Position numbers: made by a program. From the IMG/VR virus record IMGVR_UViG_3300029417_000059: DNA of 18,835 nt; one strand, given 5' to 3'. Positions 15,001-18,000 of this stretch are shown here, piece after piece. The stretch comes from a virus. Lineage: Duplodnaviria > Heunggongvirae > Uroviricota > Caudoviricetes. The number at the start of each line of letters is the position of its first letter. The first letter of the stretch is position 1.

Positions 15001-18000
15001 GCAGGCCATGACACGCCCTCGTCATTGCTGTAGTCTGCAAGACGGGCCATAACCGCCACCCTGGATAAGATCATGCCGGTGAAGGCGCACCCTTCCCAGA
15101 CAAGACCATGAAGCTTGCTGCTCATAAAACCCCCGAACACCGTGCTTTTAGTGCATCACCACAGCATTCCCTGCCGGGCCGCCGCGATTCATCTGGTCAT
15201 ACAAAACAACCGCTGACGCAACAAAATCATCGACATCCTTCACCAGCCGATCCCTCCGTTCGACGATCTCACGGTAATATTCAGAACTGTGGCTGCGCAT
15301 ACGGGCCACCAGCAAAGGCGGCATCGCCTTTTCGATCGCCGGTAACAGAGCCTGCATTTTTTCAACAGCATCAGGGGTGTCTTTCTCTACCCAGCGGAAA
15401 ATTTTCTGGGTATTGCGAGCCAGGGCTTCCGGATGGCTGTCGTCATACAGTTCTGGGAACGTCATACCCAACTCAAAATAAGCCTGGGTTATTCCAGCTG
15501 CTGGAACTTTTTCGCCATCAGGACGCGCCCAGGCATTCATCGCCATGCGGATGTGTTCATGCTTGATTTTCATGAATCAAGCTCCTAGAAAGTGGTTGTG
15601 TTAACGTTTTGGTATCTTCCAGCTCGGGCCAAATATTCATCCAATCAAAAGGCCTTAGTTGCTGACGTGTAACTTCACCATTACTGGCTCGCTCAATAAG
15701 GACACATAACGATGCCCCTAACACTTGACCTTTACTCAATGCCTTTCTTAGATAACCGATGCTGGTACCACACTCGCATGCAAACATACGCTGTTCATCT
15801 GACGAAAGAGAATTGAGAAATATTCTTAATTCTTCCATAGCTACTCCTTAGTAAACACAGCAAAAGAATACCCACAGGTAAACAAAAGTCAATACCCACA
15901 GGTTGTTTACCTTGCGGTAATCGCATCTATTATTTACCTATGGACAAATATGAATTTAGACGACAGCAACTCATCAAAATTCGTGATGAGAAATGCGATG
16001 GTAAAGCGGTTAACGTGGCCAGAAAGATCGGGCGCGAGCCTTCTTATGTATCAAGAATGTTGTACCCAGAGGGGAAAAAGGGAAAAAAACGGATCGCTGA
16101 TGATATGGTGGAGATTATCGAAGAGTCCTTTGGGTTACCCCGGGGATGGATGGATGGTATCGTTTCATCATCAACGAACACAGCCTCCAGTTATGAAACA
16201 AGGGTTCTAACGCCACGACAACGTATTTTTTTAGATCTCTTAGACGAACTGCCAGAAAGTGAAGCGGATAAATTATTAAAAACTCTTGAAGAGAAAAAAC
16301 AGTATTACAATATGATCTACGAAGAAATCCGTAAAAAGAAAGCACAAAACGCATCATAGCTCACCAAACAACTAGTCACCAGTTAAGACACCGCAAAAAT
16401 TTACCCATGGGTATTTACTTTTTAAATACCTATGGGTATCCTTCTTTTCATACCAACCCACCCCGCCCCACAGAATGCAGGGCAATACTTCGAGTTACCA
16501 GGCAGTGGTCAGGGGTTAAGTAGCCAGCCCGAGGCGTAAGAACATGACGGCAGGGTTCAACTTTAATAACTATGCAGCAGGTTTTTGTTCCGCTACCCCG
16601 GCGTTAAGGGGAAATGAGGTCAGCATGGATACTATCGATCTTGGCAACAGCGAATCTCTGGTATGTGGCGTGTTCCCCAACCAGGACGGTACGTTCACCG
16701 CGATGACGTATACCAGAAGCAAAACGTTTAAAACTGAAGCTGGCGCGCGTCGCTGGTTAACCAGAAACACTGACTGATGAGGTTGACGATGGAATTTAAA
16801 GATTTACCAGTACCATTCCAGGAAATGGCATCGAATGTGGTTCGCTCTCAACTGGCGACTCTTGACCTGAGTACCGTAGAAAAGGAAACCATCGATACTA
16901 TATCCGGTAACGTGCGTCGTGCCTTTATAGGTCTGTATGAAGAGAAGCGCCTATTCGGCGGACAGAATTCGCCTGAAAACAAGAATCAAGCAAATGATGA
17001 GAAGCTGAAACACATTATCGCCTTACTTTTGGAAGACGCAAAACGTCTACAGCAACTGGAACCAAATGCAGGCACAGAGGCCCGCATTTGGATTGCCATG
17101 AAATCACTCAAATGTGAAAGCAGTGATTATTTCAAAACAACAATTAAAACTACTCAACTTTCGGGAGAGCTACTGAAGAAATTGCCATAAGAGCATAGTC
17201 TTTCTCTTGTTCTGCAAGATGAGCATTAATACCTGGTATGGTTTTTTCAAATTTATCTATCTGTTGAATAACAACTTCGCGGTATACGTTTGTTTTTGTA
17301 CCACCAAGCGCAGCCGTTAATGCAGAAAGCATATTTAGTATCATATCAGTGCGATATGAAAGAATCCTGATAGCTTCATCTTGTTCTTCAATAATAGATT
17401 GCAGGGCCTCAATTTGCTTTTTATCCATTTCACCCTCCTGAGGGTTGGTAATTAAGGAGTTCTCCACGGGTCAGGTGGAGTGCGTGCGCCGGACACGGGT
17501 GAGCATCCGGCACTGACAGCTTACTGAAAGGATATGTCCCTGAAAAGTCAGGGCATAACGCGAAAGCGCACGGCGAAATTGGTCTCTCTGTACGGTGTCG
17601 TTAAATTTAGTTCGACCGTGCGCTTCCGGTTGTGGCACTCCGCGAAATGGCGCGGCGGTAAGTATGGCTGGGGTTTCCTCCATTGCTCCAGAAAATGCAC
17701 CGGGTTGTCAGGTTGACCATACGCTTAAGTGACAACCCCGCTACAACGCCCTCTGTTATCAATTTTCTGGTGACATTTGGCGGTATCAGTTTTACTCCGT
17801 GACTGCTCTGCCGCCCTTTTTAAAGTGAATTTTGTGATGCGGTGAATGCGGCTATGCGCACGCGGAACAGTTAAAGCAGTAAGGCGGTATTTTACGGGCG
17901 TAACGAGCATCAACTAACCCGGCGTTAATTGTTAACTGGTTAACGTCACCTGGAGGCACCAGGCACTGCATCACAAAATTCATTGTTGAGGACGCGATAA

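Follow-up and report, generated by a model that had tools for sequence, protein, structure and literature searches.

A polymorphic antisense gene slot in the early-left operon of Qin/Rac-like enterobacterial prophages

In the Rac prophage of Escherichia coli K-12, the genes racR, ydaG and ydaF (DUF1391) are followed by the antisense gene sieB, the small RNA (sRNA) KilS and kilR, and sieB is annotated as a superinfection-exclusion gene. In the e14 prophage of the same strain, the repressor gene is followed directly by ymfJ, which is convergent with ymfI, with a 3' overlap of 63 nt. An RNA sequencing survey of K-12 published in 2025 lists both ymfI-ymfJ and sieB-ydaF as convergent excludons (PMC12288877). 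Here, we analyzed a similar arrangement in an 18,835-nt stretch of viral DNA (IMG/VR record IMGVR_UViG_3300029417_000059; hereafter, the window), which comes from a Qin/Rac-like lambdoid prophage of E. coli and covers its immunity and early-left region. Between a ydfA-like gene and the sRNA DicF, a sense-strand gene (hereafter, P1) converges with a small gene on the opposite strand (hereafter, P2). Our proposal, to which we assign a probability of about 0.5, is that P2 belongs to the accessory (moron) genes, is expressed independently, occupies a polymorphic antisense slot that Qin/Rac-like enterobacterial prophages carry in their early-left (dicBF/kil-type) operon, and would be silenced by convergent early-left transcription on induction.

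The boundaries of the locus were defined by blastn against Qin and phage Tritos. Homology to both ends at 16756 and restarts at 17443, and the sequence in between had no blastn match in either genome, where both carry ydfB/ydfC; the cassette therefore substitutes for ydfB/ydfC. These breaks bear out the original prediction, made from the sequence alone, that two open reading frames (ORFs) lie between the ydfA-like gene and DicF at the Qin ydfB/ydfC place. The 41-nt overlap of their 3' ends and the 92-aa antisense gene with a strong Shine-Dalgarno (SD) sequence and a helical product (now predicted to be a three-helix bundle) were likewise recovered; the minus-strand frame is open from a GTG (17150-17467), and P2 starts at an internal ATG. 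The 137-aa operon-strand protein exists as an ORF, for which the PGAP start gives 133 aa (Table 1). The AT-rich character also stood, with 41.1% GC for 16777-17470, 40.7% for the cassette and 36.9% for P2 against 49.7% for the window, and only 1% of 686-nt windows have a GC content as low as that of the cassette. The direct flanks, however, have 45-47% GC, so the contrast with the immediate neighbors is smaller than that with the "50%" first quoted. A deviant base composition of this kind is typical of morons and supports the moron reading of P2. What did not survive is the idea of a self-contained two-gene island: the first 160 nt of P1 are matched in ~1685 of 5426 complete E. coli genomes, with several different C-termini, the middle of P1 is a YmfJ core, and only the 3' part of P1 plus P2 is variable insert. 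The DUF1391 ydfA-like gene is the conserved left neighbor of the cassette in the early-left operon, and downstream of DicF come, in order, dicB, a DUF1482 gene, an exonuclease gene, xis and int. Of the complete genomes, 4569 have sequence that matches this DicF region, and several are 100% identical to the locus over 1.3 kb.

To survey the variation at this position, we used a 17-nt motif from the conserved region starting at 17443 as an anchor and compared 121 loci, namely the window and 120 loci from IMG/VR. Two types of junction occur upstream of the conserved leader. One is a ydfC-type end, without an antisense gene (73 loci), and the other is the start codon of an antisense gene behind a common SD sequence (TTCACCCTCCTGAGGG in most types; …CAT-TTCACCCTCCTGAGGGTTGG…). 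At least seven different small antisense cargo genes, encoding proteins of 69-96 aa, were found at the slot: P2, a 77-aa type (also present in PPompW phages), a 69-aa type, two related types of 73 and 74 aa, a 91-aa type that resembles P2, and a 96-aa type. Cargo types 1-6 are convergent with the sense gene and overlap it by 11-41 nt; in these sense genes, the P1 N-domain or the YmfJ core is joined to a variable C-terminus. By visual inspection, the proteins of the first six types are rich in helices, and no Pfam family matches any of them. Searches of all types against Pfam, PHROGs, PADLOC and NCBIfam returned only PHROGs without known function, which match four types; the 91-aa and 96-aa types match none. 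The slot is located between the first operon genes (the ydfA-like gene and the N-domain/YmfJ-core gene) and the structured leader before DicF or KilS. We found no description of such an antisense slot in the literature, where the DNA that precedes DicF is given only as small unknown genes and a long untranslated region.

Two further loci show other contents at or near this position. In E. coli 2015C-3905 (L008, 2489-3200), P1 is present as a truncated variant of 123 aa, and in the ~300 nt of AT-rich DNA behind it the sole antisense ORF has 22 codons and lies behind an SD sequence; the stretch looks like a decayed or different cargo of the same slot. In one Salmonella prophage (L015, 5011-6413, minus strand), the repressor is separated from the YmfJ-like/P2 pair by two operon-strand genes, for a 157-aa DUF6932 protein and a 310-aa protein, which may be a further cargo at a neighboring position.

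Rac corresponds to the window position for position, with sieB in the place of P2, KilS in that of DicF and kilR in that of dicB, so that the superinfection-exclusion gene fills this slot in an early-left operon homologous to that of the window. Immediately behind the DicF terminator (17811-17875, plus strand), the sequence shares 95% identity with that following the KilS terminator of Rac, indicating that DicF and KilS hold equivalent positions in homologous leaders. The likeness is incomplete, as the leader adjoining sieB is only partly related to that of P2, and the sieB/ydaF overlap is 4 nt compared with 41 nt for P1/P2. P2 and Rac SieB had no blastp match at E 0.01 and no link through Pfam, NCBIfam or PHROGs.

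The e14 pair is similar to P1/P2 in its convergent architecture and in ymfJ itself, which carries the YmfJ core of P1 (aa 69-108; 75% identity over 40 aa, E 2e-19), although P1 has an extra N-domain and a different tail. Both ymfI and ymfJ are y-genes without known function. YmfI (phrog_8894) is unrelated in sequence to P2 (phrog_18692), and the leader of ymfI has a clear extended -10 element, whereas that of P2 does not. During late SOS induction, ymfJ is up by 4.8 log2 and ymfI by only ~2 (PMC11002266); the induction of ymfJ is the expectation for a repressor-controlled early gene. A YmfJ-like gene followed by a convergent, overlapping small antisense gene was found in e14, Salmonella, Hafnia, Lelliottia, Cronobacter phage phiES15 and Aeromonas phage pAEv1818. 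The YmfI family is also present in a Salmonella prophage, Hafnia and the two phages, while Lelliottia has another antisense gene (81 aa) and the antisense gene of Erwinia is reduced to a 14-codon remnant. In phiES15 (L005, 2735-3022, minus strand), the antisense gene is an unannotated 95-aa member of the YmfI family, which is 60% identical to gp19 of pAEv1818 and overlaps the 3' end of the YmfJ-like gp10 by 30 nt. The sieB/ydaF and ymfI/ymfJ excludons give two same-slot precedents for the predicted expression logic, in which the antisense gene would be silenced by early-left read-through; by analogy, this logic is plausible for P1/P2, whose coding regions overlap without a terminator between them.

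We also compared the locus with other classes of small prophage genes. Morons and the antiviral hotspots of phages P2 and P4 share with the slot a variable low-GC cargo, conserved flanks and many alternatives at one position (PMC7067206; PMC9122126). The cargo of these systems is, like P2, oriented against the lytic genes and presumably lysogen-expressed, and a position antisense to lytic genes is characteristic of prophage accessory loci (PMC7067206). The slot cargoes differ from them in being single proteins of 69-96 aa without a known defense domain, with a common initiation region and a 3' overlap with the sense gene. P1/P2 also resemble type II toxin-antitoxin systems, in that two small prophage genes travel together, but they are convergent on opposite strands and not co-transcribed. 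Pfam and PADLOC gave no toxin or antitoxin domain for either protein, and the best hit overall, a RelB-like match of P2, stayed below threshold (E 0.019; 15.2 bits against a cut-off of 50). Given the convergence, the lack of a domain match and the interchangeable partners described below, the toxin-antitoxin-like module that had been suggested for the pair is not supported and was rejected, and no abortive-infection or defense family matched P1 or P2 in Pfam, PHROGs, PADLOC or NCBIfam.

The family of P2 is an orphan without known function, which agrees with the earlier statement that neither protein belongs to a recognized family; P1 departs from it in matching the uncharacterized YmfJ family. 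P2 is rare, with 22 clusters among 5.8 billion proteins and 13 matches in an exhaustive HMMER scan of 1.84 billion representatives. A tblastn search of 50,697 GenBank phage records gave no match, and P2 was absent from the contigs of a one-genome-per-species collection. It is present, at 98-100% identity, in 126-127 of the 5426 complete E. coli genomes, and close copies are found on 56 IMG/VR contigs. Strains with the cassette include E. coli O127:H6 (NZ_LT827011), BEN2908 and ML35. Relatives at 33-43% identity retain length and frame. The ratio of nonsynonymous to synonymous substitution rates (dN/dS) is 0.23 for P2 outside the overlap (E. coli versus the Salmonella homologue, 70% aa identity) and 0.23 for P1 (versus a 91% variant), and judged by these substitution patterns both are real genes under purifying selection. 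The P2 protein is acidic (isoelectric point 4.95) and has no transmembrane segment (maximum 19-residue Kyte-Doolittle hydropathy 0.93); it is predicted to be a soluble three-helix bundle, with a predicted local distance difference test score (pLDDT) of 78.8. P2 had no match below E 0.37 among PDB sequences, and no helix-turn-helix (HTH) or other regulator family was found in it in Pfam or NCBIfam. Its size and predicted fold suggest a binder or inhibitor, not an enzyme.

P1 (phrog_1363, a family without known function; E 9.5e-45) is a mosaic of the N-domain, the YmfJ core and a tail. The N-domain is 80% identical to the N-terminus of a 135-aa PPompW protein and is also found in the sense partners of cargo types 2, 4 and 5. 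Aligned with 20 family members, P1 contains the YmfJ-core consensus ELKHVIALLLEDAKRLQQxEPNAGTEARI. This core is represented by 106 protein clusters from Escherichia, Salmonella, Citrobacter, Enterobacter, Erwinia, Hafnia, Cronobacter and Lelliottia, often as a stand-alone protein of 44-48 aa; its dN/dS is 0.06 with dS saturated, and its conservation therefore acts on the protein. The AlphaFold2 model of P1 is all-helical, with a confident helical hairpin in the N-domain (pLDDT ~82) and low confidence elsewhere. In the PADLOC 2.0 search, the best match of P1 was to HerA (E 0.022, 11 bits), which is not meaningful. P1 is the second gene after the dicA-like repressor and promoter-proximal in the early-left operon, and the YmfJ-type gene is likewise promoter-proximal after the repressor in e14, Salmonella, Erwinia, Lelliottia and Hafnia. 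The complete P1 occurs in 168 of the complete E. coli genomes, ~40 more than have P2. P1 is an early sense-strand YmfJ-family protein and not an obligate partner of P2.

The expectation that the two genes always occur together held among close relatives and failed among distant ones. In 55 of the 56 IMG/VR loci, P2 faces a YmfJ-core partner with the same tail and the 41-nt overlap (the 56th locus is cut off), and in one locus the partner lacks the N-domain. The Salmonella homologue of P2 lies in a Rac-like prophage and is convergent, again with a 41-nt overlap, with a 71-aa YmfJ-like gene. This overlap recurs in three contexts, including Salmonella (L014) and L009. One distant P2 homologue, in a phage P2-like virus, has a 41-nt overlap with the 3' end of an unrelated 214-aa HTH gene, and others face a cI-type repressor across ~300 nt or adjoin an integrase. 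The 91-aa homologue (hidden Markov model E 1e-12; cargo type 5) is partnered by a different sense C-domain, and the domains of P1 are also found beside unrelated antisense genes. Wherever the neighbors could be resolved, the P2-family genes in Salmonella, the phage P2-like virus and lambdoid contigs are convergent with repressor-side genes. Judged from these homologues, P1/P2 recur as a unit only in part, and the constant element is the architecture, not the partnership; the interchangeable partners on both sides argue against an obligate toxin-antitoxin-like pair. The tails of the partners are alike even when the partners are unrelated (…QLSGELLKKLP, …HLSEALLKKCT, …QIPEELLIRCS), and dS is 0.34 within the overlap compared with 0.87 outside. 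The 41-nt overlap, the likeness of the tails and the low dS may be by-products of dual coding opposite the conserved C-terminus of P2 (SSVALP), or they may have been selected.

The conserved structured leader before DicF, described as a "long untranslated region", is predicted to form 50 pairs, of which 9 show compensatory changes, and includes a long-range helix whose loop is GNRA-like; the leader is covered by no Rfam family. Related stretches were detected in L002, L003, L004, L008, L009, L014 and L019-L138, and the distal part resembles the KilS/pre-kilR region of Rac. The folding energies are similar on both strands. In the distal long-range helix, however, the G.U pairs favor the operon strand by 13 to 3, so the sense RNA, the precursor of DicF/KilS, is probably where the distal leader functions, and the proximal leader may serve both strands. 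On the P2 strand, the 100 nt that precede the gene are predicted to fold into two stable hairpins (z = -3.5), the first of which has compensatory changes. The second has the form TGCC(K)G-N11-13-C(M)GGC and is found unchanged in front of all antisense genes examined, in both leader classes. The SD region of P2, in a short palindrome, precedes most cargo types. The best sigma-70-like promoter candidate for P2, TTTTCA-17-TAAGCT, recurs at the same position in Salmonella (L014), and L009 has a better, unrelated -10 there. Leaders of the YmfI class have a conserved extended -10 element (TGgTATGCT / TATACT) ~35 nt before the ATG, a motif absent from the P2-class leader; it indicates that antisense genes of the slot plausibly have their own promoters in related phages. 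In the YmfI-class leaders (e14, L007 5398-5500; L199, L201, L197, L006, L005 and L012), the hairpin TGCCTG..CAGGC is followed by the extended -10 and AGTTCTCACACAGCCAGCAAGGAAA. Kept from E. coli e14 to an Aeromonas phage, this leader looks like a common promoter-plus-leader cassette.

The results above show the anatomy of the locus, its coding status and recurrence, the mosaic structure and the polymorphism of the slot; from these and from the precedents, we infer a promoter, lysogen expression, silencing and a function for P2 as follows. In the lysogen, the repressor would shut the early-left promoter, and a weak promoter within the conserved leader would drive leftward transcription of P2. 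The small, soluble helical protein might then bind a host or incoming-phage protein, most likely to the benefit of the lysogen (exclusion/defense type). On induction, early-left transcription would run convergently through P2, and collision and RNA duplex formation would silence it, which would make the pair an excludon of the kind reported for ymfI-ymfJ and sieB-ydaF. Transcription of P2 may also damp leaky read-through into the toxic dicF/dicB. Different small antisense genes have been exchanged at the slot; those of DicF-type prophages mostly share the SD region, and each ends inside the 3' end of the sense gene.

Several results weigh against this proposal. Strict promoter-consensus scans found no minus-strand site for P2, the TTTTCA-17-TAAGCT candidate is weak and equally conserved in loci without cargo, and the terminator scan found no terminator after P2 or between P1 and P2. 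In one data set, ymfI shows no fall on e14 induction (PMC11002266). SieB is a 162-aa membrane protein with long hydrophobic stretches, whereas P2 has 92 aa and is predicted to be soluble. P2 had no significant match in Pfam, NCBIfam or PADLOC, including any defense, exclusion or toxin family, and the fold search returned a generic helical bundle with no match suggestive of function. A frameshift truncates P2 to 27 aa in 5 of the 56 IMG/VR loci while the P1 partner is intact, and selection on P2 is thus not absolute. Finally, P2 in E. coli and Salmonella is always accompanied by a YmfJ-core partner with a conserved tail, an association that leaves room for a functional link to P1.

That last point would fit a cognate pair, in which P2 would be a lysogen-expressed defense or abortive effector and its inhibitor, produced only after induction, would be the YmfJ core and tail that form the C-terminal part of P1, so that the lytic growth of the prophage itself is spared and silencing acts at both the RNA and the protein level. 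The YmfJ-core partner and the 41-nt overlap are constant across a dS of 0.87, even unrelated partners have similar tails where they overlap P2-family genes, the extremely constrained YmfJ core is usually followed by an antisense gene, and prophage defenses with cognate self-immunity have been published (BstA, PMC8585504, and Tha, PMC11087260). We nevertheless regard a cognate pair as unlikely: distant P2 homologues are found with the 214-aa HTH protein, with the C-domain of type 5 or with no partner within 300 nt, and the likeness of the tails can follow from dual coding. YmfJ-core genes also lie beside at least five unrelated antisense families, and one YmfJ core cannot specifically inhibit all of them. 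A quite unlikely alternative is that antisense transcription is itself the function, with a constitutive leftward transcript acting as a roadblock or antisense RNA against leaky expression of the toxic dicF/dicB (or kil) and the ORFs riding along. The downstream genes are indeed toxic division inhibitors silenced by DicA (PMC5069750), the cargo is highly interchangeable, and Qin-type loci that lack an antisense gene conserve the promoter-like hexamers and the two hairpins just as well. A role of the transcript alone does not account for the purifying selection on the P2 protein, which is conserved down to 33% identity, or for the strong SD kept in most cargo types, and the G.U bias of the distal helix points to a role of the sense RNA.

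P2 could also regulate the switch or early program of its own prophage, through DicA/DicC-type repressors, excision or the activity of DicB/Kil. P2-family genes always adjoin repressor, cox, integrase or early-left genes, and in its small size, helical structure and acidity the protein resembles many phage regulators and inhibitors. The immunity modules beside its homologues vary, however (DicA-like, cI-S24 and phage P2-type), a change that a specific regulator would not easily tolerate, and together with the lack of an HTH or regulator family match this makes such a role improbable. Its rarity (13 representatives in 1.84 billion proteins and 0 in the one-genome-per-species collection) and the frameshifted copies might suggest that P2 is a chance ORF or a decaying remnant without function. 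This is scarcely credible for a gene with a dN/dS of 0.23, a strong SD, a constant length, homologues at 33-43% identity in other types of phage and intact copies in 126 complete genomes.

A broader and tentative extension of the moron proposal is that dicBF/kil-type early-left operons hold a dedicated antisense platform, made of the hairpin leader and a ribosome-binding site common within each class, for at least eight unrelated small genes including P2, YmfI and sieB. Such a platform would be an unrecognized hotspot of lysogen-expressed exclusion or host-modulating factors, with self-immunity through excludon silencing and possibly through the YmfJ-type partner. If the slot is swappable and also holds sieB, it would give a testable function for ymfI and ymfJ of K-12 and for several unknown PHROGs. 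A swappable slot would also be a source of tiny lysogen-expressed proteins missed by current defense finders, and its convergent, dual-coded gene ends would allow mutually exclusive expression to be studied in a simple natural setting. Interest would rise considerably if the cargo proteins were exclusion factors, whereas a P2 without phenotype would be an ordinary mosaic moron.

Table 1 Features of the P1/P2 locus (positions in the window)
Feature	Position	Strand	Remarks
ydaT-like and dicC/ydaS-like genes		-	first in gene order
dicA-like repressor gene	15940-16359	+	
ydfA/ydaF-like DUF1391 gene	16625-16777	+	Pfam PF07151, E 6.6e-27; PGAP annotation of an identical locus
Cassette in place of Qin ydfB/ydfC	16757-17442		686 bp; bounded by blastn breaks; 40.7% GC
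P1	16789-17190	+	133 aa; PGAP WP_001339605.1; GAGG 6 nt upstream
P1, alternative start at ATG 16777	16777-17190	+	137 aa
P1 N-domain	16789-16950	+	aa 1-54 (MEFKDLP...); common to many sense partners with other C-termini
YmfJ core of P1	16993-17112	+	aa 69-108; KLKHIIALLLEDAKRLQQLEPNAGTEARIWIA
Convergent 3'-end overlap of P1 and P2	17150-17190		41 nt
P2	17150-17428	-	92 aa; WP_016239000.1; ATG at 17428
SD of P2, AGGAGGG	17433-17439	-	inside palindrome ACCCTC-AG-GAGGGT
Conserved structured leader ("long untranslated region") before DicF	17443-17764	+	right-hand anchor of the slot
Putative first hairpin of P2 leader	17462-17480	-	CTCCAC/GTGGAG
Putative second hairpin of P2 leader	17488-17511	-	GCCGGA/TCCGGC
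Best sigma-70-like promoter candidate for P2	17518-17547	-	TTTTCA-17-TAAGCT; position weight matrix scan; weak
DicF sRNA	17765-17816	+	Rfam RF00039, 77 bits

Other features were noted in the window. Between the dicA-like and ydfA-like genes, a 16-bp palindrome (TACCCATGGGTATTTAC…GTAAATACCTATGGGTA) is followed by a T-run (16402-16438, plus strand), which could be the terminator of the repressor gene, an operator, or both. A sok antitoxin RNA (11094-11269, minus strand; Rfam 120 bits) indicates a hok/sok-type module in the same prophage. Two copies of the sRNA STnc100 (5574-5783 and 6061-6251, minus strand) adjoin three tRNA genes, Arg-tct, Arg-tcg and Met-cat (6327-6576, minus strand).

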